NCBI GenBank assembly: GCA_900554815.1
Contig: USIO01000002.1
Span: 192-64,191, forward strand
DNA length: 64,000 nucleotides
Direction of reading: 5' to 3'
From: an uncultured Clostridium sp.
Lineage (GTDB): Bacteria > Bacillota > Clostridia > TANB77 > CAG-508
Every line of letters starts with the position of its first letter. Position 1 is the stretch's first letter. The notes below the pieces were generated by a model, which worked only from the letters and a program-made list of their open reading frames with translations, was not told the origin of the DNA and made no database searches. Shown here piece after piece: positions 2,449 through 37,265 of the stretch. A program made the translations under genes and the position numbers.

Positions 2449-3069
2449 CTACTTTTTACTGACCATTTTTTCTAGGTTTTCTTCAATAAAAAATTTTAAT
2501 TTTAAGATTTCGTTCATTTCATCATTTGAGAAATTTACACAATTTGTTTTTGAAAATTGTAATGCTAAAAATCCTATTGGATCTCCATTTTTATTATTTA
2601 AAATAATATCAAAAAAAGAACCTATTTCTTGTCCTTTTTTTAATCCATAAGTTGCTGGCATACATTCCTTTATATCTTCTAAATTACTAATTTTCATTTG
2701 CTTTTCATTTAATAATGTTCTAATAAAACTAGGAATACAACTTAATGGAACAGCTTGAAGTTCTTTTTGATGGCTTTTTATTCCTGTTCTTACCACTTCA
2801 AAAGTACATGAAGTTTTTAAAGCACTTCTTCCATTTGCATAATGACCACCATTATGAAAATCATAGATTTGTACACGATCAGCCTTAACAAATTCTTTCA
2901 AAGCTTCCATTTTATTTGTAATTTCCATATCTATTGAGCATTGCTTTTGTATTTTTCTAGGTAAGGTATTTTCGATTTCCTTTTTAGCTTTTAAAGCTGT
3001 AGCAATAAGTGTCCCAAGTGCTGCTATTAATGCAGTTATACTTATTATTGTAGTTGTTATACTTTCCAA
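2449..3069 (-). CDS. Membrane-anchored hypothetical protein (206 aa, N-terminal TM helix)
   Basis: N-terminal hydrophobic helix TTTIISITALIAALGTLIATAL, then a soluble domain. No recognisable motif. Sits between XkdX and the holin, after a terminator. Confidence 0.35.
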   Translation of the reverse strand: MESITTTIISITALIAALGTLIATALKAKKEIENTLPRKIQKQCSIDMEITNKMEALKEFVKADRVQIYDFHNGGHYANGRSALKTSCTFEVVRTGIKSHQKELQAVPLSCIPSFIRTLLNEKQMKISNLEDIKECMPATYGLKKGQEIGSFFDIILNNKNGDPIGFLALQFSKTNCVNFSNDEMNEILKLKFFIEENLEKMVSKK

Positions 3070-3217: not shown

Positions 3218-3352
3218 TTATTTGTAGTCTTCTCCTGTAATTTCTTTATATTCCTCTTCTGTAATCCATTTTCCAACGGCATTATATACTCTTGTTTGGT
3301 TCCACATTCCATTTTCATAATAATTTTTTACTTTTTCAAAATTTTTACTCAT
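3218..3352 (-). CDS. xkdX: XkdX-family small phage protein (44 aa)
   Basis: MSKNFEKVKNYYENGMWNQTRVYNAVGKWITEEEYKEITGEDYK. The GKWIT.EEYKEITG C-terminal motif is characteristic of Phage_XkdX. Below the ORF-track cutoff. Confidence 0.65.
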   Translation of the reverse strand: MSKNFEKVKNYYENGMWNQTRVYNAVGKWITEEEYKEITGEDYK

Positions 3353-3355
3353 AAT

Positions 3356-3685
3356 CTACTCCTCCTCCAAGTCAATATCTGACATCATTGCTAGATATTC
3401 AATATCAGATTGCATTTTCAATTTTTCTAGTTCTGCTTCAGATATATCTCTTAAAACGAAATAGTATCCATCTTTATAGTGTGCAATTTGTACTAATTCC
3501 ATATGATTATGTTCTTCAGTAATCTCTTGTCCATCTTCAGTAGTTCCTTCTATTTTGACTTTTATTAATTTTCCTTTGAAGTCCTCCTCTGTGATTTCAG
3601 TTTCTGATACAAAATTATTTCCATTTAAACCTAAGTTTTCAAGTTTTGTTCCATCAGCCAATGTAATTTTCCATGATTTTTCCAT
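3356..3685 (-). CDS. Hypothetical phage protein; XkdW-like call rests only on position and size
   Basis: 109 aa acidic protein immediately upstream of xkdX. Overlaps the RT 3' end by 55 nt. Confidence 0.3.
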   Translation of the reverse strand: MEKSWKITLADGTKLENLGLNGNNFVSETEITEEDFKGKLIKVKIEGTTEDGQEITEEHNHMELVQIAHYKDGYYFVLRDISEAELEKLKMQSDIEYLAMMSDIDLEEE

Positions 3686-4749
3686 GTTACCCTCCTTTTA
3701 AATAAATCATAATATAATTGTGACATATTACTTATTTGTAATCTTGACATATTTTTATAGTTTCCTGCCATCCAACTTTTAAATGTATTTTCTATCTCAT
3801 CATAAGTTAATCTTTTCTTTTCTAATAATCTTTTATATGCTTTCAATTTTCTGCGTTCTCGTGTTATTGCTTTAGGATGTATCTTCTTTATCAACCTACC
3901 TGTTTCAGTTAACTGATATTGTATTTGTAATATTCTAAAAGGTTGAGATAATTTGCACAAGTGTGTTTTTTTAGGATTAATTATTAAGCCTAATTTATCA
4001 GCTATTTCTTTTATTTCTCTCAATAACTTTTTTAAGAAGTCTTTATCTTCATGAATTATATAAAGATCATCCGTATATCTTCCATAATGTTTAACACCTT
4101 TTACGATTTTAATATAATTATCAATTTTTACAGGATAAGAAATTCCTATATTTTGTGAAGGTTGACTTCCTATATCAACACCTCTGTTATTTTTATTATC
4201 TATATTAAATATTTCAAATAAATTACTTAATATCCATAATGTTATTTTTGCTTCGTCTTTATCTGCTTTCTTTAATAAATTATATGTATTTTGTAAACAT
4301 AATTTGTGAGGAATACTAGCATAATAACTGCTAAAATCAATCAATAATATATATCCTTCATTATTTTTATGCTTTCTATAATATCTATGTAAGTGTGTTT
4401 CTAATCTTTTTCTGTGGAAGGATACTCCTTTGCCCTTTTGACTAGCTCCATTATCATAAATTAAATATGGAGAAATAGCTTTACTTAAAACATTATCACA
4501 AAGTAGATGATTTATAGTTTTATCCACCATATTGTCTGTTGTTATATGTCTTATTTTTCCTCTTTCTTTAATTATAAATTTTCTTCCTTTAGAAGGCCTA
4601 TACTTTCCTTCAATTAACTTTTTCTGTAATTCAGCAGTTTCTAATAATTGGTTCATTTCAAATAAGTGTGATTGATATTTGAAAGGAGCTCCTTTAATTG
4701 CTTTTTTTCCTGCCTCATATATTGCATTTGCATCATAAAAAACATTCAT
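3631..4749 (-). CDS. DGR reverse transcriptase
   Basis: RT motifs present: YILLIDFSSYYASIPH (motif A), IGSQPSQNIGISYP (DGR-typical I-G-x-x-x-S-Q motif B), RYTDDLYIIHED (YxDD motif C). 372 aa, typical DGR RT size. Lies adjacent to a TR/VR pair. Confidence 0.9.
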   Translation of the reverse strand: MNVFYDANAIYEAGKKAIKGAPFKYQSHLFEMNQLLETAELQKKLIEGKYRPSKGRKFIIKERGKIRHITTDNMVDKTINHLLCDNVLSKAISPYLIYDNGASQKGKGVSFHRKRLETHLHRYYRKHKNNEGYILLIDFSSYYASIPHKLCLQNTYNLLKKADKDEAKITLWILSNLFEIFNIDNKNNRGVDIGSQPSQNIGISYPVKIDNYIKIVKGVKHYGRYTDDLYIIHEDKDFLKKLLREIKEIADKLGLIINPKKTHLCKLSQPFRILQIQYQLTETGRLIKKIHPKAITRERRKLKAYKRLLEKKRLTYDEIENTFKSWMAGNYKNMSRLQISNMSQLYYDLFKRRVTWKNHGKLHWLMEQNLKT

Positions 4750-4894
4750 AAATCACTTTAATAGTATTACTGGTCGTAACCAAATACATAATGATTAGTA
4801 TTTATCAACATTTACTTGTTGAAGGGATAATCTTTCCTTTCCTTTTCCCATTGCCCTGCTATGAAAGCTTAGTTCATATATATTGCATGGTTGT

Positions 4895-4989
4895 GAAATC
4901 GGGACGAACGCCATTCGAGTTCGAAGCAGAGTTGTTGTTGGCATTGCCATTGCTGTTAACATTAGCGAAGTTCGAAGAAGAAGCGACAT
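4895..4989 (-). repeat. DGR template repeat (TR)
   Basis: About 91 bp homologous to 5662-5756. All 15 mismatches are at TR adenines on the coding (minus) strand. TR frame carries AAC/AAT codons (..NFANVNSNGNANNNSASNSNG..). Confidence 0.85.
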
Positions 4990-5008
4990 ATAAAGATTAC
5001 CCACTAAA

Positions 5009-5521
5009 TTATTTTTTTATGTTTTTTAGAAACCTATTGTCAGACTGTCTGAGTGCTTTTATCATATTAAATTCTTGTTGAATTAATAAAACTAAATTTG
5101 TATACTTATTAAGATCTGCATATAAACATTCTCCTACATACTGTAGTTCATCTTGAAGTGCGTTGCAGCACGACATTGCTCTATCCATTTCTATTCTTCT
5201 TTCTTCAAATTCAGAAATGTATGTTGGAAATATTGTATTTGCAATTCTTAAGTGTCTACTTATTCCTGTCGCTAGTTCTATTACACTATTTGTAGAACGG
5301 TTTAATTGTTGTTCAAAATATTGATAAGTTCTTTTTTTTATTTTTTGCTGTTCTTCTTCTGGAAATCTTTTAATTTTCTCTGCAATAATATTTTCTACCT
5401 TTGAACTATTTATATAGAAATCATTTTCAGCTAGCTTAGTTACCGCCATTCTAATTTTATATGCATTATGTATAGTCTGTAATTTTGATTCTTTCCTTTC
5501 ACTCTTTTTTATATCTGACAT
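5009..5521 (-). CDS. avd: Putative DGR accessory variability determinant (Avd-like), basic helical protein
   Basis: Sits between target gene and TR, which is the canonical avd position. 170 aa, K/R/E-rich and predicted helical. No direct motif proof. Confidence 0.45.
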   Translation of the reverse strand: MSDIKKSERKESKLQTIHNAYKIRMAVTKLAENDFYINSSKVENIIAEKIKRFPEEEQQKIKKRTYQYFEQQLNRSTNSVIELATGISRHLRIANTIFPTYISEFEERRIEMDRAMSCCNALQDELQYVGECLYADLNKYTNLVLLIQQEFNMIKALRQSDNRFLKNIKK

Positions 5522-5619
5522 TTAAAATAATACTATTTCTCCTTTTCTGCAATTTTCGACAAAATTATATCATTTTAAATTTATTAATTTAACTATTTTG
5601 AAGAACCACTATATTATAT

Positions 5620-5640
5620 GTCAGGGCATAAAGCCCTGAC
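5620..5640 (-). other. GC-rich hairpin immediately 3' of VR/IMH (candidate DGR homing-enhancing stem-loop)
   Basis: gtcagggc-ataaa-gccctgac, 8-bp perfect GC-rich stem. Sits 10 nt past the target stop codon and is not followed by a T-run on the transcript strand. Confidence 0.5.
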
Positions 5641-5649
5641 GATGTCTGA

Positions 5650-6510
5650 TTAGTAGATTAGGAAAGCGGGACGAACGCCACCCGAGCCCGAAGCAGAGCC
5701 GCTGTAGGCAAGGCCATAGCCGTTAACAAAAGCGAAGTACGAAGAAGAAGCGACATCCCTTAACCAATAATAATGTCTTGTTCCTGAATCATTAAAAGCT
5801 GTTATTAAATCTTTTCTATGTTGAAATAATGATAACTGAGACTTATCTATTGTAATATTGCCGGTTGGCAAGCTAGTTCCATTTATTACATTATGAAATA
5901 CATTAGTTCCATACACCATTATTTCATTCATTAGTTCTATTGTGCTATCAACCCATGAGCCTGCACTTTCATATCCGCTAGTTGTAGCATTAGCTAAATA
6001 ATTTCTATGTGATAGGATATGAGCAATTTCAAAATCATTTTGTATAATAGTTTTAAATGGAGCCAAATTTTCTGTGTACATTTTGCTTCCTACATAAGCA
6101 CCGGTTGTAACATTGGTTTCATTCATTTGAGCACTACCCATTGTTTTTTCTGGTATCATTAAAACATGATGAGTTGTACACTCTGTATCTCCACAGTGAA
6201 GTCTATAATCTAAGTCTGCTACTATATATTTTCTATTACTATTTTTCCCTATGATATAATCTCCTACAAATATATCATCAAATGTTCCTGCAGCTATTTG
6301 TTCGCTTAATGTTCCATCATAGAATAAGTCTGTTATATCTTGCCCTCTATAAATAGAATTATGAGCACCTGCATTTTGTGGTATTAACCCACTTAATAAT
6401 TTGGATAATAGCACTTTTTTAGTTTTTCCATTTGTAGTATCTACAATTGGAATTACATCATTATTATTTATTGTTAGTAATTCTTCTAATTCTGATATTT
6501 TTTTAATCAT
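5650..6510 (-). CDS. DGR variable target protein: tail-fibre/receptor-binding-like, C-terminal C-type-lectin-like variable domain (DUF1566/FGE-like ending ..HYYWLRD..VRPAF)
   Basis: 286 aa. VR covers the last 32 codons (DVASSSYFAFVNGYGLAYSGSASGSGGVRPAFLIY). First ORF after the tail genes. RBS AAGGAGGG. Confidence 0.8.
   Translation of the reverse strand: MIKKISELEELLTINNNDVIPIVDTTNGKTKKVLLSKLLSGLIPQNAGAHNSIYRGQDITDLFYDGTLSEQIAAGTFDDIFVGDYIIGKNSNRKYIVADLDYRLHCGDTECTTHHVLMIPEKTMGSAQMNETNVTTGAYVGSKMYTENLAPFKTIIQNDFEIAHILSHRNYLANATTSGYESAGSWVDSTIELMNEIMVYGTNVFHNVINGTSLPTGNITIDKSQLSLFQHRKDLITAFNDSGTRHYYWLRDVASSSYFAFVNGYGLAYSGSASGSGGVRPAFLIY
5662..5756 (-). repeat. DGR variable repeat (VR) with IMH-like GC element (ggcgttcgtcccg) at its 3' end
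   Basis: Differs from TR only at positions where TR has A on the coding strand (A to C/G/T). Invariant GC-rich 3' segment shared with TR, then divergent flanks (IMH versus IMH*). Confidence 0.85.
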
Positions 6511-6523
6511 TTTTACCCTCCTT

Positions 6524-7369
6524 TTACATTCCGCAAGCTAGATATTCATTATCTTCTGTTACTAGATAATCTCCATCCTCTGTTACTATTGCAGAAATTG
6601 ATTCCATCAACATTTGTGTTAAATTATCTATTTGTAATTGCAAGTTTCCTGCTGCATCTTCAGATAATTGGTCTTTCATTTGTTGAAACCAAGTATCAAA
6701 TGCATTTTCTTCTTGAGAAAAGAAATTTGCCATTGCTTGCTTAAATTCTGTAAAATATTCATCGTGTTCCGCTTCTTGATCTTCATAATATTTTTGATAT
6801 GCAGCCTGCCATTGGGCATATAATGTTGAAGTATCTACTTGGTATATTAAACTTGTAACCCAAGGACATTCATTACTTCCTCTGCAGTCTGTTATTAGAT
6901 TTTGTGTGACTTTTACACAAGAAGGACTAATAATTATATCAGCTAATCTTAACTCAAAAATATTTTCCTCAGTATTAATTTCTGGATGTACAGGATTACT
7001 TGAAGCAGACCCCTGTCTATATACTATATTTCCTACTCTTCCTGCTTGTGTTTTATCTACTTGAGCCACTATACTGTCTATTCTTGATAAAACTTCCGAG
7101 TTTTGTGATATAGTTATTATCAAGTCGCTTGGATTTTCAAACCATTTGTCTCCAATTATTGCATTACCTGCGGAAACTATTACATTCATTCCATTATTTG
7201 CAGAAAATACTTGTAAATCATCGGATGCTTCGCCCTTTGGTGTTGCAAAAACACCATTGCTTACTAATCTTCTGTAAGGTCTATTCATATCATCTGCAGA
7301 ATAAGTTCTATCCTCATTTATTGCATCAAAAAATCCTGCATTTACATTATATTTTACATCGCTTGACAT
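6524..7369 (-). CDS. Phage tail fibre/baseplate-associated structural protein (hypothetical)
   Basis: 281 aa between the Tal-like gene and the DGR target. Q/E-rich coiled C-terminal part. No motif recognised. Confidence 0.35.
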   Translation of the reverse strand: MSSDVKYNVNAGFFDAINEDRTYSADDMNRPYRRLVSNGVFATPKGEASDDLQVFSANNGMNVIVSAGNAIIGDKWFENPSDLIITISQNSEVLSRIDSIVAQVDKTQAGRVGNIVYRQGSASSNPVHPEINTEENIFELRLADIIISPSCVKVTQNLITDCRGSNECPWVTSLIYQVDTSTLYAQWQAAYQKYYEDQEAEHDEYFTEFKQAMANFFSQEENAFDTWFQQMKDQLSEDAAGNLQLQIDNLTQMLMESISAIVTEDGDYLVTEDNEYLACGM

Positions 7370-21278: not shown

Positions 21279-21947
21279 CTATGGTTGAAAGCTTTCAAAC
21301 CATTCTTCTATATATTCTTTCCAATTATCATTTTTTGCACGATTTAAACAAATATCTTTACTACATTCAATGAATATCGTTTCAGCTCCGAGCTTGTCTG
21401 CTAGTCTTTGTCTTTCCATCTTTAATGGATAAGTACCTACTATAAAAGCATTCTGCCAGTTGCCTAGTCTCATCTTGATTTGTTCAAGTAGATTATTCCT
21501 TGTTTCAAAAACATTTTGCTGTAATTTCTTAGGTTTGTTATACTTGTCGCAGAAGCTAATGCACTCCCATATTTTGTCTATATCTATGATTAAATCATCA
21601 GTTGTTGCCATTTCTTCTACCCATGTTGACTTACCAGAACATGGAGAACCATAAACTATATATACTTTCTTAGGTAATTCATATCCAAATCTATGATGTA
21701 CTGCATTATGGCATTTAAAATGTATCAACATTATATTGTCTTTGTTAAGGCTTATATTATAGTCATTTACATTTGCATTGTTTAATGGTATCTTATGATG
21801 TCCTATGCAGTCATAGGCTTTTACTATTTCTTTTCCACAGTATTCACATATTAGCTGTCCTTCCTTATTTGTTCTTTCTAGTTTCAATTCTTCGAGTAGT
21901 TTCTGCCATTCTTTAGATTTATATAATTCATGAGGATTTGCAAACAT
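21279..21947 (-). CDS. HNH endonuclease fused to a C-terminal P-loop NTPase/kinase-like domain
   Basis: N-terminus CEYCGK..HHKIPL..N....CHNAVHH (HNH). C-terminus VYIVYGSPCSGKSTWVEE (Walker A). Adjacent to the terminase genes. Confidence 0.7.
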   Translation of the reverse strand: MFANPHELYKSKEWQKLLEELKLERTNKEGQLICEYCGKEIVKAYDCIGHHKIPLNNANVNDYNISLNKDNIMLIHFKCHNAVHHRFGYELPKKVYIVYGSPCSGKSTWVEEMATTDDLIIDIDKIWECISFCDKYNKPKKLQQNVFETRNNLLEQIKMRLGNWQNAFIVGTYPLKMERQRLADKLGAETIFIECSKDICLNRAKNDNWKEYIEEWFESFQP

Positions 21948-22613: not shown

Positions 22614-23648
22614 TTACCTTTTTAATTTATCTAATAACTGTTCTTTAATCTTCTCAGCAATTTTTTTCATCATTACTGGTGGAACACTCATTCCACATAT
22701 GTATTGAACATTTTGTCCACAAAAGTTATAATCTTGTGGAAATGTTTGAATTAGTTTAATATCTCTATCACTTATTGATGCTGGCACATCGAATCTTAAA
22801 AATAAGCTTCCAGATGCTAATGTGTTTGGTATCCTATTATCTTTAACAAATTGTGTATTGAAGCTACTAATCTTACCATTTTCTGTTCTTTCAATAGTAT
22901 CACATAAATTGTTGTCCCTTTTACTTCTCTTTAACCATCTTTTGTATAACATAGTATCCTTATTTATTAATTTGTACTCTGTATCTTTTATTTCTCCATA
23001 GGTTATAAATTTTTCATTAAATTCTAATTGTATCTTCGGCAAATCTAAATCTTCTCTTATCGAAATAAAAAATACTCTTTCTCTCTTTTGAGGAACTCCC
23101 ATTCTTGCAGAGTTTAATAGAAATATTTGTGTTCTATATCCTATTTTTTCTAATTCTTTTATTATTAAGTTTACATATCCTCTAGCATTGCCCATTATTA
23201 TTCCTTTTACATTTTCTGCTACAATTATTTTGGGTTTTAATCTTCCTGCTAACTTTATAAATTCAAAAAACAAATCATCCAAAACTTGAAATGCCTGTCC
23301 TTCTCTAAACTTTTTACTTTTTCCCCAGTTTTTTTCTCTTTCTCCTGCTAGTGAAAAGGTACTACATGGAGGGCTTCCATCTAATATATCTAAATCATAT
23401 AATTCTTGTGGATAATCTTCTAATTTATTCATTTCTTGTATTGGCATACAAAAATTATATTTTGGATGATGGTTACAGATATACACTTTATTTATTTTTT
23501 TATCAATTTCACAATTTCCTATAACATTGTATCCTGCTAGTTTATATCCCATAGTTGATCCTCCACCACAGGAAAAACATGAAAATACCTTATAATTATT
23601 TTTAGGAATATGTTTTAAATCCGTTAAATTCCATTCATACTCTGGCAT
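22614..23648 (-). CDS. DNA (cytosine-5)-methyltransferase
   Basis: Motif I FSCFSCGGGSTMG, motif IV GSPPCSTFS (catalytic Cys), motif VI AENVKG. 344 aa. Confidence 0.85.
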   Translation of the reverse strand: MPEYEWNLTDLKHIPKNNYKVFSCFSCGGGSTMGYKLAGYNVIGNCEIDKKINKVYICNHHPKYNFCMPIQEMNKLEDYPQELYDLDILDGSPPCSTFSLAGEREKNWGKSKKFREGQAFQVLDDLFFEFIKLAGRLKPKIIVAENVKGIIMGNARGYVNLIIKELEKIGYRTQIFLLNSARMGVPQKRERVFFISIREDLDLPKIQLEFNEKFITYGEIKDTEYKLINKDTMLYKRWLKRSKRDNNLCDTIERTENGKISSFNTQFVKDNRIPNTLASGSLFLRFDVPASISDRDIKLIQTFPQDYNFCGQNVQYICGMSVPPVMMKKIAEKIKEQLLDKLKR

Positions 23649-23658
23649 TATATTTTCC

Positions 23659-24249
23659 TCATTTCTTTATATCAAACATAAATCCACATTTTGGGCATTG
23701 ACATTGAAATTTATCATCTTTAAATTCTGACAAATCCACTTCTTCATTATCATTTATTATTTCTTCTGATTCTTTTAGTAATTTTTCAATTTCTTCATTA
23801 TCAAATCCTGTTAATAATAAATCTATATCCGCTTCTTTTAATTCTAGAAGTAAATCTTCTAACTTATCATAATCCCATTCTCCACTAATCTTATTTAGTG
23901 CAACATTTAATGCTTTTTCTTTTACTTTGTCTAGTTCAACAACATTACATTCAATTTCAGTATATCCTAATGTTTTTAATACTTTTAACCTTTGATGTCC
24001 ACCTATTACAGTCATATCTTTATTAACTATAATAGGATCCACATATCCAAATTCTTCAATACTTCTTTGAATCTTTTTCCATTCTTCATCTTCGGGTTGA
24101 AGAGATCTTTTCTTGGATTGTATTCTGCTAGTTTTAATTTTTCTATGTTTATTTTTTGAATGTTCATTTTCTTTCTCCTTAAAACAATTTATTTCATATT
24201 TACAATTTTTACATTCTCTTAACATACAGATTTTATAATTCATAGGCAT
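23659..24249 (-). CDS. ParB-like nuclease domain protein with Cys-rich N- and C-terminal zinc-ribbon-like segments
   Basis: GYVDPIIVNKDMTVIGGHQRLKVLKTLGYTEIECNVVEL matches the ParB N-domain (ParBc). Start set at MPMNYK (24249) because the longer ORF would overlap the tRNA-like element. Confidence 0.6.
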   Translation of the reverse strand: MPMNYKICMLRECKNCKYEINCFKEKENEHSKNKHRKIKTSRIQSKKRSLQPEDEEWKKIQRSIEEFGYVDPIIVNKDMTVIGGHQRLKVLKTLGYTEIECNVVELDKVKEKALNVALNKISGEWDYDKLEDLLLELKEADIDLLLTGFDNEEIEKLLKESEEIINDNEEVDLSEFKDDKFQCQCPKCGFMFDIKK

Positions 24250-24261
24250 ATATCCTTTTTT

Positions 24262-24335
24262 CTTTGGTTGCGGACATAGGATTCGAACCTCGTCTATGGG
24301 ATATGACCCCATCGTGCTGCCTTTGCACCATCTCC
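24262..24335 (-). ncRNA. Degenerate tRNA-fMet-like element (CAU anticodon loop), possible phage-borne tRNA or pseudo-tRNA
   Basis: GGTTCGAATCC T-loop and acceptor ..CCGCAACCA. D-stem GTGC/GCAC and anticodon stem ATGGG/CCCAT with loop GTCATAT. T-stem only 3 bp and one acceptor mismatch. Confidence 0.4.
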
Positions 24336-24487
24336 GCAATATAAAAAGCTACCTAAAGGGGAAGGTAGCTCTACAAAATTGGAAAAAGATATATGAAATT
24401 TCATATTTGCAATTTTTTGCAATTATAATTGTAACATATTATTTTTTTTAATAATACGGACAAAATATATAAATTTTATGTACAAAA

Positions 24488-27801: not shown

Positions 27802-28347
27802 TTACTCCTTTTCTATCAATTCTTCAGCCCAATATAATTTGTACATAGGATTATTAACTTTTTTGTTACAGTAATCACTTACAGTCTGTCTACTTATAAA
27901 TAATTTTTTTGATGCATCTCTTGTTCCCTTAAAAACCTTTGATATAACTCCTTTTTCGTCGAGCATAACTATTGATTTTCTATGTGACTGCCAACCAGTT
28001 CTTTTTCCCGCTTCCGATCGTGTAACTATAATTAAGTTTGATAATTTATTATCAGAAATGATACCGTTTTTGTGATAGACTACTTCATTTTTCTTTAATT
28101 TTCTTACAAATGTTTCCATTACTGTCTTCGCAACATTAAAGTTTTTTCTTTTTCCATCAATAGTCAAAATTATTATTTGCAAAGATCCTTTTTTAAATGT
28201 CTTTAGATATCTATACTTATATTTATAAATTTTTCTAAATCTTCCGTAATTACTAACTTCATATCTTGAATTTAATATATTTCTCCAAATTTCATCTTTG
28301 TACTTAATTTCATATTCTTTAATCATTTTTTCTCCTCTGTATCTCAT
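27802..28347 (-). CDS. HNH homing endonuclease (NUMOD4 + HNH_3-type)
   Basis: YEVSNYGRFRKIY (NUMOD4) and VYHKNGIISDNKLSNLII (HNH). C-terminal HTH-like SRQTVSDYC. Confidence 0.6.
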   Translation of the reverse strand: MRYRGEKMIKEYEIKYKDEIWRNILNSRYEVSNYGRFRKIYKYKYRYLKTFKKGSLQIIILTIDGKRKNFNVAKTVMETFVRKLKKNEVVYHKNGIISDNKLSNLIIVTRSEAGKRTGWQSHRKSIVMLDEKGVISKVFKGTRDASKKLFISRQTVSDYCNKKVNNPMYKLYWAEELIEKE

Positions 28348-35407: not shown

Positions 35408-36796
35408 ATGAATACTACAGGTACTCGTAGAGCTAATGGCGAAGGATCTATCTACGATACTATACAAAAGATACCTAGAAGAAAAAAATTGGATCGTGAA
35501 TGCGATATTTGTAAAAACTGTACTGATAGAAATATATGTAATAATCGTACTGGCTCAGCCAAATGTCAGAAGTGCGTTGAGTGTACTGACTGCTTAAAAT
35601 ATTGTGACCGCTTCTATTGTTATTTTAGATATCAAGCTCAGATTTCCATAGATAAAAAACAGACTACTGTTGCTAATGAAGAAAAGAAAAAAGCTGCAGT
35701 TGATAAAAAATTAAATGTAGAAGCAAAAGTCCATACTAAGAGCTATGTAAAAAAACATGGTATCACTATTATTGAAGTATGTAAAAAAATAGGAAATACA
35801 AAATTTGAAGCAGGAAAAATCGTAAAAAATACAAAGGATAAAGATAAATATCATTACAAATATATTGAGAACTGGCCAGATTTTCAAAAGCCAGTACAAA
35901 AAGTAACTTATAATGAAGTCCAAGATTTTCTTAATTCCATAAGGCATCTCTCACAAGGAGAAATAGAAAAAATAGTTGCTAAACTAAAAGCAGGCTTTAT
36001 GCAATGTGTATTAGATAAAATAATAGCCTATCCAGATAATCCTATGTTAAGGATATATATTCCTGTTTCCTTACAGAAAAAAGAACCTGTGCAGGCTTTT
36101 GAAATTGAGGAGCAAAGAAAATTAATAAAATATTTACTAACTAAGCCTTTGGTAAAAAGTTCTAGATGTAATTATGATGAAGAAACTCTAAGGAATTTAT
36201 TTATATGTGCATTATTATCTGCTGCAAGAATTGGAGAATTAGGATCCATTGATATTGATAAAAATATAGATTTAAAGGCTAGCGGATTCACAATAAATCG
36301 AACATTATCTAGTGATGGTGGAAAAATCATTATGGGCAAAACTACTAAAACTGGTCGTAAAAAAGTAGAGCAAGGCTTGTTAGATGAAAGGTTTGTACCA
36401 TTTGATATTTTTGATGAAAACTTCATGCTAGACATTGTCAAAAATCAAATAAAAAATGCACGAAGTAATCCAAATAATAAGGAAAATCTTTTGTTTTGTC
36501 AGTTAGATGGTAGTTATATAGACCATCGTTCCATAAATAATATATTTAAAAGGATTTGTAGAGAAGCAGGTGTAAAATTAGAACTTCCTAAGGGATGTCA
36601 TACTCACATGTGTAGGCATACTGCTGTTACTAGGATGATTGAAGCCGGAATGGATCTTCTGGTTATTGCAGCTATCCTTGGCCATGTTGATGACCGCCAA
36701 ATAAGAGAGACTTATGGTCATATTCTCGCACGATATATAAACAAGCAGTTAAAGGATTGTAGAGTTTATTCTAAAAAGATAAAACTTTGTGCTTAG
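35408..36796 (+). CDS. int: Tyrosine integrase (phage integrase family) with an unusual Cys-rich N-terminal extension
   Basis: Catalytic region CRHTAVTRMIEAG...LGHVDDRQIRETYGHI (HxxR...Y). N-terminus has 10 or more Cys (CDICKNC..C..C..CQKCVEC..C..C). Confidence 0.85.
   Translation: MNTTGTRRANGEGSIYDTIQKIPRRKKLDRECDICKNCTDRNICNNRTGSAKCQKCVECTDCLKYCDRFYCYFRYQAQISIDKKQTTVANEEKKKAAVDKKLNVEAKVHTKSYVKKHGITIIEVCKKIGNTKFEAGKIVKNTKDKDKYHYKYIENWPDFQKPVQKVTYNEVQDFLNSIRHLSQGEIEKIVAKLKAGFMQCVLDKIIAYPDNPMLRIYIPVSLQKKEPVQAFEIEEQRKLIKYLLTKPLVKSSRCNYDEETLRNLFICALLSAARIGELGSIDIDKNIDLKASGFTINRTLSSDGGKIIMGKTTKTGRKKVEQGLLDERFVPFDIFDENFMLDIVKNQIKNARSNPNNKENLLFCQLDGSYIDHRSINNIFKRICREAGVKLELPKGCHTHMCRHTAVTRMIEAGMDLLVIAAILGHVDDRQIRETYGHILARYINKQLKDCRVYSKKIKLCA

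Positions 36797-37191: not shown

Positions 37192-37265
<74 letters not shown>

Follow-up and report, generated by a model that had tools for sequence, protein, structure and literature searches.

A 64,000-nucleotide stretch of the genome of an uncultured Clostridium sp. (assembly GCA_900554815.1, contig USIO01000002.1), referred to here as the window, very probably carries a functional diversity-generating retroelement (DGR) borne by a temperate siphovirus-type prophage. The DGR cassette occupies positions 3631..6510 on the minus strand, all coordinates being those of the 64-kb window. The list of open reading frames (ORFs) and the raw sequence together give its order on that strand as target gene with variable repeat (VR), accessory ORF, template repeat (TR), spacer and reverse transcriptase (RT) gene. 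An earlier, sequence-only reading of this DNA had proposed the canonical minus-strand order of target/VR, accessory, TR and RT, with coordinates that proved right to within a few bases: the TR, given there as 4989..4895, extends one nucleotide further, to 4894, and the VR lies at the 3' end of the target gene, as it had been placed. A gap of 128 nt separates the target ORF from the accessory ORF, and 259 nt of non-coding DNA lie between the accessory and RT ORFs. The parts of the cassette are as follows.

6510..5650, minus strand: DGR target gene, a 286-amino-acid ORF with a conserved N-terminal body and a C-terminal DUF6273 domain that carries the VR
5756..5661, minus strand: VR, a 96-nt ungapped match to the TR at the 3' end of the target gene
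5521..5009, minus strand: accessory ORF, 170 amino acids, pI 9.17
4989..4894, minus strand: TR, with the 21 adenines that vary in the VR at 4972..4914
4893..4750, minus strand: TR–RT spacer RNA, 144 nt, structured, the counterpart of the BPP-1 'Sp'
4749..3631, minus strand: RT gene, an intact ORF of 372 amino acids

Adenine-directed variation of the VR beside a constant TR

The VR and TR align over their 96 nt with 17 mismatches, all confined to the 24 TR adenines; the 72 remaining bases match throughout. The chance that 17 random positions would all fall on A is 1.1e-13. In the frame of the target, ten AAC/AAT codons and one AGC codon hold the mutable TR adenines at their first and second positions, and the VR as a whole spans codons 252–285 of the 286. 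The 21 mutable adenines give access to ~2e12 possible peptides, with no stop codon reachable. When the TR pattern with its adenines masked was searched against the whole 64-kb window, only two copies were found, the VR and the TR themselves (0 expected by chance), and the cassette therefore has a single target; the pattern revealed no second VR or remote target within the window. The same pattern had no match in the GTDB representative genomes.

Four loci from other samples carry a TR identical to that of the window. L001 (an ENA assembly) and L002 (a Logan assembly) were retrieved through RT protein identity and not through the repeat pattern; L003 (IMG/VR) and L004 (a human gut metagenome) were retrieved through the A-masked pattern, have one VR allele in common and possibly represent a single phage. 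With the window included, there are four VR alleles, which differ pairwise at 9–18 positions. Across these alleles, all 21 adenines at TR positions 18–76 vary and no other base in that interval does, while the first TR adenine is unchanged in all four. Between L002 and the window there are 0 differences in the 754 nt of target upstream of the VR, the accessory gene, the TR and the spacer, and 18 in the VR. Heterogeneity of the VR, whose absence would have counted against the sequence-only reading, is present between near-identical phages. Further away, 17 distant loci in metagenome-assembled genomes (MAGs) of Clostridia, with RTs 53–80% identical, each have a 94–95-nt VR/TR pair at the same spacing, and their VR/TR mismatches lie all or nearly all on TR adenines. 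Adenine-only VR variation beside a constant TR is the signature of mutagenic retrohoming, and this comparative evidence argues for recent DGR activity in the lineage.

Two of the relatives also record exchange outside the VR. L002 is a mosaic that matches the window from the target (except for the VR) through the accessory gene, TR and spacer into the 5' portion of the RT gene, and is ~5% divergent from about 4250 downwards (to ~3250), across the 3' half of the RT gene and the following ORFs. The onset of divergence at ~4250 implies that the RT gene contains a recombination breakpoint. L001 is nearly identical to the window in the accessory gene, TR and RT, and its target body carries 119 substitutions and a one-codon indel over 5758..6436, the interval in which L001 and L003 were compared with the window. 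The L001 changes cluster at 5758..6250, just upstream of the VR, a pattern suggesting that target-body modules are exchanged independently of the DGR machinery.

At and beyond the 3' ends of the repeats lie two elements that may direct homing, the first of them a candidate initiation of mutagenic homing (IMH) box.

5679..5667 (VR) and 4912..4900 (TR), minus strand: IMH box, GC-rich 13-mer GGCGTTCGTCCCG, read from the sequence
5640..5620, minus strand: hairpin/cruciform 3' of the VR, GTCAGGGC-TTTAT-GCCCTGAC, with an 8-bp stem

Immediately 3' of the 13-mer the VR reads CTTTCCTAATC and the TR ATTTCACAACC, a fixed difference of which each version is kept in the relatives. The 3' ends of the VR and TR match the IMH/IMH* arrangement of Bordetella phage BPP-1, which explains two 'fixed' A-to-C differences. 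The last two TR adenines (4899 and 4894; VR 5666 and 5661) are C in every VR allele seen, and this pair lies 3' of the GC box, so these changes are read as IMH/IMH* differences and not as mutagenesis. This leaves TR 4972..4914, corresponding to VR 5739..5681, as the mutagenised stretch.

The hairpin lies 26 nt beyond the GC-rich 13-mer and folds with -15.2 kcal/mol under RNA parameters. Its position is conserved, and its stem shows compensatory changes in L005, L007, L012, L014 and L021. The stem occurs in the versions GTCAGGGC, CCTCAGGGC, GACAGGGC, GTCATGGC, GCTAGGG and CCCGGCCC, and the loop is conserved within clades. No T-run follows the hairpin, and a terminator scan found nothing. In BPP-1, a hairpin/cruciform is needed for efficient homing, and both the stem structure and the loop sequence matter (PMC3240598). 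A sigma-70-like promoter match (5642..5613, minus strand, TCGTCA-18-TATAAT, 10/12) overlaps the hairpin upstream of the accessory gene and could drive an accessory–TR–RT transcript. The region is AT-rich, however, and yields 33 such matches where 22 are expected, a slight enrichment.

Reverse transcriptase, accessory protein and DGR RNA

The RT matches RVT_1 in Pfam (E=4.9e-14) and phrog_1423 in PHROGs (E=1.8e-53), and contains the motifs GVDIGSQPSQ and YTDD. The sequence-only reading had singled out IGSQPSQ and YTDD and had seen no inactivating mutation; both motifs are present and the ORF is intact. Among all PDB sequences, the sole match is 8ub7 (E=3e-8), whose chain is labelled just 'Reverse transcriptase' and which we take to be the bRT of Bordetella phage BPP-1 in the cryo-electron microscopy (cryo-EM) complex of bRT, Avd and RNA. 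In the alignment to 8ub7, R67, IGSQPSQ and YTDD stand opposite bRT R74, I181-GSLTSQ187 and YMDD. The motif [I/V/L]GxxxSQ is the signature of DGR RTs, group II and retroviral RTs carrying QGxxxSP, and bRT R74 and I181 promote adenine mutagenesis (PMC7826257). In the cryo-EM structure R74, I181 and Q187 touch the incoming nucleotide (bioRxiv 10.1101/2023.10.23.563531). By its motifs, its PDB match and its model scores, the RT is of the DGR type.

It is extremely improbable that the RT instead comes from a retron, a group II intron or an abortive infection (Abi)/defence-associated RT (DRT) system and that the VR and TR are an unrelated duplication. NCBIfam does return weak matches to models of these kinds, as expected of any RT domain, but their scores fall far short of the cut-offs: 60.8 bits for group II (cut-off 300), 39.6 for Drt3a (200) and 35 for retron St85 (235). 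The RT is not of the group II, retron or DRT kind, the first two of which the sequence-only reading had named as refuting it; its only PDB match is the DGR bRT, and it has IGxxxSQ in place of QGxxxSP (PMC7826257). Rfam finds neither intron RNA domains nor a retron msr/msd, and mismatches confined to adenines (P~1e-13) recur in the 17 distant relatives.

In a tblastn search of a phage collection, the best match to the RT is Acutalibacter phage Fontainebleau and the second is Roseburia phage Shimadzu. The homologues include phages reported to have DGRs (Faecalibacterium phages Taranis, Brigit, Toutatis, Lelie, Roos and Pioen; nd4 and nd12), and Bordetella phages are also among the matching records.

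The protein encoded between the target gene and the TR had been described from the sequence as basic and Avd-like. It is basic; the likeness to Avd holds for the fold but not for the sequence. The confident predicted model of the monomer is a four-helix bundle with one extra short helix, and a fold search with this model returned PF05635-type (23S rRNA-intervening-sequence) proteins and BPP-1 Avd as the best matches. The model covers a single chain, whereas accessory proteins of the Avd type form a pentameric barrel to which the RT and the DGR RNA bind. No Avd or PF05635 model was matched in Pfam, NCBIfam or PHROGs, and searches of the PDB by phmmer and with a 25-sequence profile did not find the Avd of 4DWL / 8UB7. 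None of the 205 homologues is annotated and none has a Pfam domain. Four-helix bundles are common, so the fold match is support and not proof; taken with gene position and charge, it supports a divergent, longer Avd.

The region around the TR and the spacer is predicted to form a structured RNA. An alignment (A4) of 18 non-identical sequences, extending from 32 nt upstream of the TR to the RT start codon, fits a nested fold of 42 pairs with 94.3% paired. Both sides are altered in 28 of these pairs, compared to 4–9 when the 3' partners are slid by 1–3 columns, and none of 500 shuffles reached the observed score. A separate RNAalifold run on the spacer alone (A3) gave 19 compensatory pairs out of 30. 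The predicted helices are listed below.

5002-4992 (GGGUAAUCUUU) with 4835-4824, minus strand: TR-enclosing duplex, 11 pairs, 97% of cells paired, 6 compensatory
4898-4895 with 4841-4838, minus strand: H1, UUUC:GAAA, invariant, with the UUUC directly 3' of the TR GC box
4890-4885 with 4859-4854, minus strand: H2, a stem just past the TR, nested with H3
4878-4873 with 4865-4860, minus strand: H3, a stem nested inside H2
4822-4817 with 4810-4805, minus strand: H5, a small hairpin
4787-4779 with 4774-4764, minus strand: H7, a 9-bp hairpin with a UACG loop

A further variant of the TR-enclosing duplex, UGACUCUU/AAGAGUCA, is found in phage Fontainebleau. Such a duplex has been described in BPP-1, and similar elements have been predicted in 207 other DGRs (bioRxiv 10.1101/2023.10.23.563531). 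The local hairpin that RNAalifold placed at spacer columns 70-82 never varies, and it was dropped because the long-range duplex has 6 compensatory pairs and the hairpin none. The spacer also weakly matches Rfam RT-14 (RF02921) over the full model (1-144): it scores 28.5 bits, where the gathering threshold is 48.1. Among the relatives tested, RT-14 was matched neither at that threshold nor at E<=1, and with the sub-threshold score this led us not to file the RNA under RT-14. RT-10 has been placed in the BPP-1 spacer, and other RT motifs have been speculated to serve other DGRs (Weinberg et al. 2017, PMC5737381). Two mechanically called ORFs run across the TR and spacer, 4795..5004 (minus strand) and 4791..5081 (plus strand), of 69 and 96 amino acids. 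Like the hypothetical protein annotated over the TR and spacer of phage Fontainebleau (L051 3247..3501), they are probably spurious calls over non-coding DGR RNA.

These parts suggest how the element would work. A transcript would span the end of the accessory gene, the TR, the 144-nt spacer and the RT gene. In the folded RNA, the duplex of 5002-4992 with 4835-4824 would close the TR in a loop and the spacer hairpins would form, and by analogy to BPP-1 the RT and the basic Avd-fold accessory protein would bind this RNA. Priming would probably occur from the spacer, at the UUUC:GAAA pairing beside the 3' end of the TR, with an A of GAAA as the putative priming nucleotide. The RT would then copy the TR to cDNA, misincorporating opposite adenines only, and the GC-rich IMH box, together with the DNA hairpin beyond it, may steer homing of the product. 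The priming site, the RT–accessory complex, the homing mechanism and a receptor-binding role of the target are features that we infer from Bordetella phage BPP-1.

The target protein and its prophage

Residues 224-285 of the target match Pfam DUF6273 (E=3.7e-5), and most of its 4068 homologues have a precomputed PF19789 match. In an alignment of the target (A2), the body shows strong conservation and most of the variation falls on the AAY-templated codons; the C-terminus follows the pattern ...WLRDVxSSxFAxVxxxGxAxxxxASxSxGVRPAFLIY, varying at the AAY-templated positions. A profile search of the PDB with the target gave no match. DUF6273 has been reported to be C-type-lectin-like, in the targets of phages nd4 and nd12, the 'tentaclins' (PMC10743442), and in DGR targets of Faecalibacterium prophages the VR lies within the DUF6273 domain (PMC11792537). 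Gene position, DUF6273 and the analogy to BPP-1 make the target most likely a receptor-binding protein of the distal tail module.

A working DGR might also diversify something other than a receptor-binding protein, such as an accessory virion-surface adhesin for mucus or glycan, or a protein that serves the lysogen. We consider this unlikely, though well worth weighing. The target weakly matches the 'Hoc-like head decoration' family phrog_10993 (E=0.0036), the adjacent ORF at 7369..6524 matches PHROG 'head protein' families, and adhesin-like architectures of DGR targets have been discussed for Faecalibacterium phages (PMC11792537). However, the target follows the tape-measure-like protein (TMP), Dit, Gp37 and one structural gene and precedes lysis, which is the usual siphovirus place of a fibre or receptor-binding protein. 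The position is the same in all relatives and in phage Fontainebleau, and DUF6273 targets have been interpreted as receptor-binding proteins (PMC10743442).

The structural gene just named is the 281-amino-acid ORF at 7369..6524 (minus strand), between the Gp37-like protein and the target. Its match to PHROG 'head protein' families is strong (phrog_1220, E=1.6e-66), and its homologue in phage Fontainebleau bears the same label. Its position points to a tail or baseplate component, and the label may be misleading.

Several observations count against a functional DGR that works in the manner set out above and diversifies a receptor-binding protein. The DUF6273 match of the target is barely above the cut-off (24.1 versus 23.5 bits), and the AlphaFold2 (AF2) model of the target is poor (predicted local distance difference test score, pLDDT, 50), probably because the 26-sequence alignment is shallow; the C-type-lectin fold of the target is putative. 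The UUUC:GAAA pairing is invariant and hence has no covariation support; since it never varies, covariation cannot test its role as a primer duplex. Elsewhere in the RNA, much of the covariation stems from a single deep split that divides AT-rich from GC-rich relatives, which makes for fewer independent events than the cell counts suggest. Finally, the VR differences seen are between samples, not among reads from this lysogen. Heterogeneity of this kind, together with the mosaic RT region of L002, would also fit a DGR relic that was inactivated recently and whose VR differences predate the loss of activity. Such a relic is very unlikely. The divergence of L002 from ~4250 downwards shows recombination and not function, all ORFs are intact with the catalytic YTDD and IGSQPSQ kept, and the IMH box, the hairpin and the RNA helices are all intact as well. 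Moreover, four contigs whose VRs carry 9–18 differences show 100% identity throughout the TR, spacer and accessory gene. A functional DGR therefore remains our preferred explanation.

The cassette has the tail module on one side and the lysis module on the other, within a full siphovirus-type prophage adjoining a tRNA-Gly. Upstream, on the same strand, are genes for a 1026-amino-acid TMP, Dit (Sipho_tail + SPP1_Dit), a Sipho_Gp37 tail protein (Tal-like) and the 281-amino-acid structural protein. Downstream of the RT gene are a 109-amino-acid ORF, an XkdX-like ORF, small membrane proteins and an endolysin with Amidase_2 and CW_7 domains. The left 37 kb also encodes TerL, portal, S78 prohead protease, HK97-type capsid, tail tube and holin, as well as regulatory and integration functions, namely a CI-like repressor with helix-turn-helix (HTH) and S24 domains and a tyrosine integrase. 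From 37.3 kb on, housekeeping genes follow (IleRS, EF-Ts, pyruvate kinase, glucan phosphorylase, SecD), and the GC content is 26-31% throughout the window. Phage genes to the left of 37.3 kb, housekeeping genes beyond and the low GC content therefore place the cassette inside a complete integrated prophage of a low-GC bacterium. The sequence-only reading had put the element in a prophage, directly after the tail genes, in a Clostridia-like host; the cassette does lie between the TMP/Dit/Gp37 genes and the lysis genes, and the low-GC chromosome and the relatives of the element in Clostridia MAGs agree with such a host.

Other features of the prophage were noted. At its 3' end the RT ORF shares 55 nt with the next ORF (3685..3356, 109 amino acids, without a family match), and this latter ORF and a 44-amino-acid XkdX-like ORF (~3352..3218, from the L001 gene calls) are kept downstream of the RT in relatives. 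Related metagenomic phage contigs terminate inside the endolysin gene. The tyrosine integrase (35408..36796, plus strand) adjoins the tRNA-Gly (37192..37265, minus strand), the probable attachment site. A direct repeat of at least 14 nt joining the tRNA-Gly side to the rest of the window was looked for and not found, and therefore either the left prophage end lies beyond base 1 or the attachment core is shorter. The prophage also carries a C-5 cytosine DNA methylase (22614..23648), an HNH + AAA protein (21279..21947) and an HNH_3/NUMOD4 endonuclease (27802..28347, minus strand). A tRNA-Met (CAT) at 24265..24338 (minus strand), among early or replication-side genes and overlapping the end of the ORF 23659..24339, is probably phage-encoded.

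Relatives and comparison with known systems

Public assemblies already contain the identical RT sequence, in a cluster of 81 member sequences, and IMG/VR holds copies that are 89-97% identical. The lineage is common in Clostridia MAGs, and the one named sample is a human gut metagenome. A DNA search of the phage collection revealed no close relative; the sole match to the cassette was 91 nt of the TR, in phage Fontainebleau.

The window offers a clean, well-documented example of a phage DGR from uncultured Clostridia of the gut, for which comparison with relatives supplies evidence of activity, and leaves the understanding of DGRs unchanged. It predicts that the prophage can draw on about 1e12 variants of a tail-end protein to change what that protein binds. 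For specialists, there are two by-products: an Avd-fold accessory family with 205 unannotated homologues that sequence profiles miss, and a covariation-supported DGR RNA that parallels the cryo-EM BPP-1 RNA and reaches a cultivable mouse-gut phage. We propose tentatively, with confidence a little short of even, that these belong to a large and uncurated DGR lineage of gut Clostridia siphoviruses, defined by a 170-amino-acid Avd-fold family missed by Avd profiles and by a DGR RNA outside Rfam, which consists of the TR-enclosing duplex, the invariant UUUC:GAAA candidate primer duplex and the 9-bp UACG-capped hairpin. If this is true, profile-based surveys would count such DGRs as Avd-less. The lineage would also provide a compact low-GC Gram-positive model, with Acutalibacter phage Fontainebleau as its inducible cultured member, in which the generality of the BPP-1 RNA-guided priming and stop mechanism could be tested.

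The prototype for comparison is BPP-1 (mtd-avd-TR-brt), in which the gene order of target/VR, accessory, TR, spacer and RT is the same as here. The two elements also share adenine-only TR/VR differences, AAY codons in the TR, a GC-rich IMH with a diverged IMH*, a hairpin 3' of the VR, an [I/V/L]GxxxSQ RT with counterparts of R74, I181 and Q187, and a small basic accessory protein that forms a four-helix bundle. They differ in that the RT here is a distant match (E=3e-8), the accessory protein has 170 amino acids, an extra helix and no sequence similarity to Avd/PF05635, and the target is a 286-amino-acid DUF6273 protein and not Mtd. The spacer, too, has no Rfam RT-10 match and only a weak one to RT-14, and the host is a low-GC Gram-positive anaerobe. 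The likeness to RT-14 lies in a location directly upstream of the RT gene and in a layout of nested 5' stems, a purine-rich single strand, a small hairpin and a long 3' hairpin.

Among deposited phages, Acutalibacter phage Fontainebleau (ON453893; L051), an induced prophage of A. muris from OMM12 mice, comes closest. Identities are 46.5% for the RT, 46% for the accessory protein and 50% for the target. The cassette lies between tail and lysis genes in both, and the IMH/IMH* sequences, the hairpin position and the RNA architecture, TR-enclosing duplex included, are alike. In contrast to the window and its close relatives, which have 0 non-adenine VR/TR mismatches, phage Fontainebleau has 3 of 19 mismatches at non-A positions of the TR (G, T and C; 2546..2639 versus 3261..3354), and these may reflect ordinary drift or lower fidelity. 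Its record annotates a 'reverse transcriptase' and not a DGR, and the paper naming the phage makes no mention of one.

DGRs with DUF6273 targets are already described in phages of gut Firmicutes (PMC11792537, PMC10743442), and the element is not a new kind. The phages in question are Faecalibacterium phages Taranis, Brigit, Lelie, Roos and Pioen together with nd4 and nd12; Roseburia phage Shimadzu is provisionally grouped with them. Like the prophage described here, they are temperate or gut siphoviruses. In Lelie, Roos and Pioen the VR is at the C-terminus of DUF6273 (PMC11792537), as it is here, and the targets of nd4 and nd12 carry DUF6273 (PMC10743442). Some of these phages have two targets or larger targets with Ig domains, whereas the window has one target and one VR. 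Their RTs are 28-34% identical to the one in the window, compared to 70-97% for the uncultured Clostridia lineage. Since DGRs with DUF6273 targets are known and copies of this RT are public, the cassette is a well-formed example of a known system that would not surprise a specialist.

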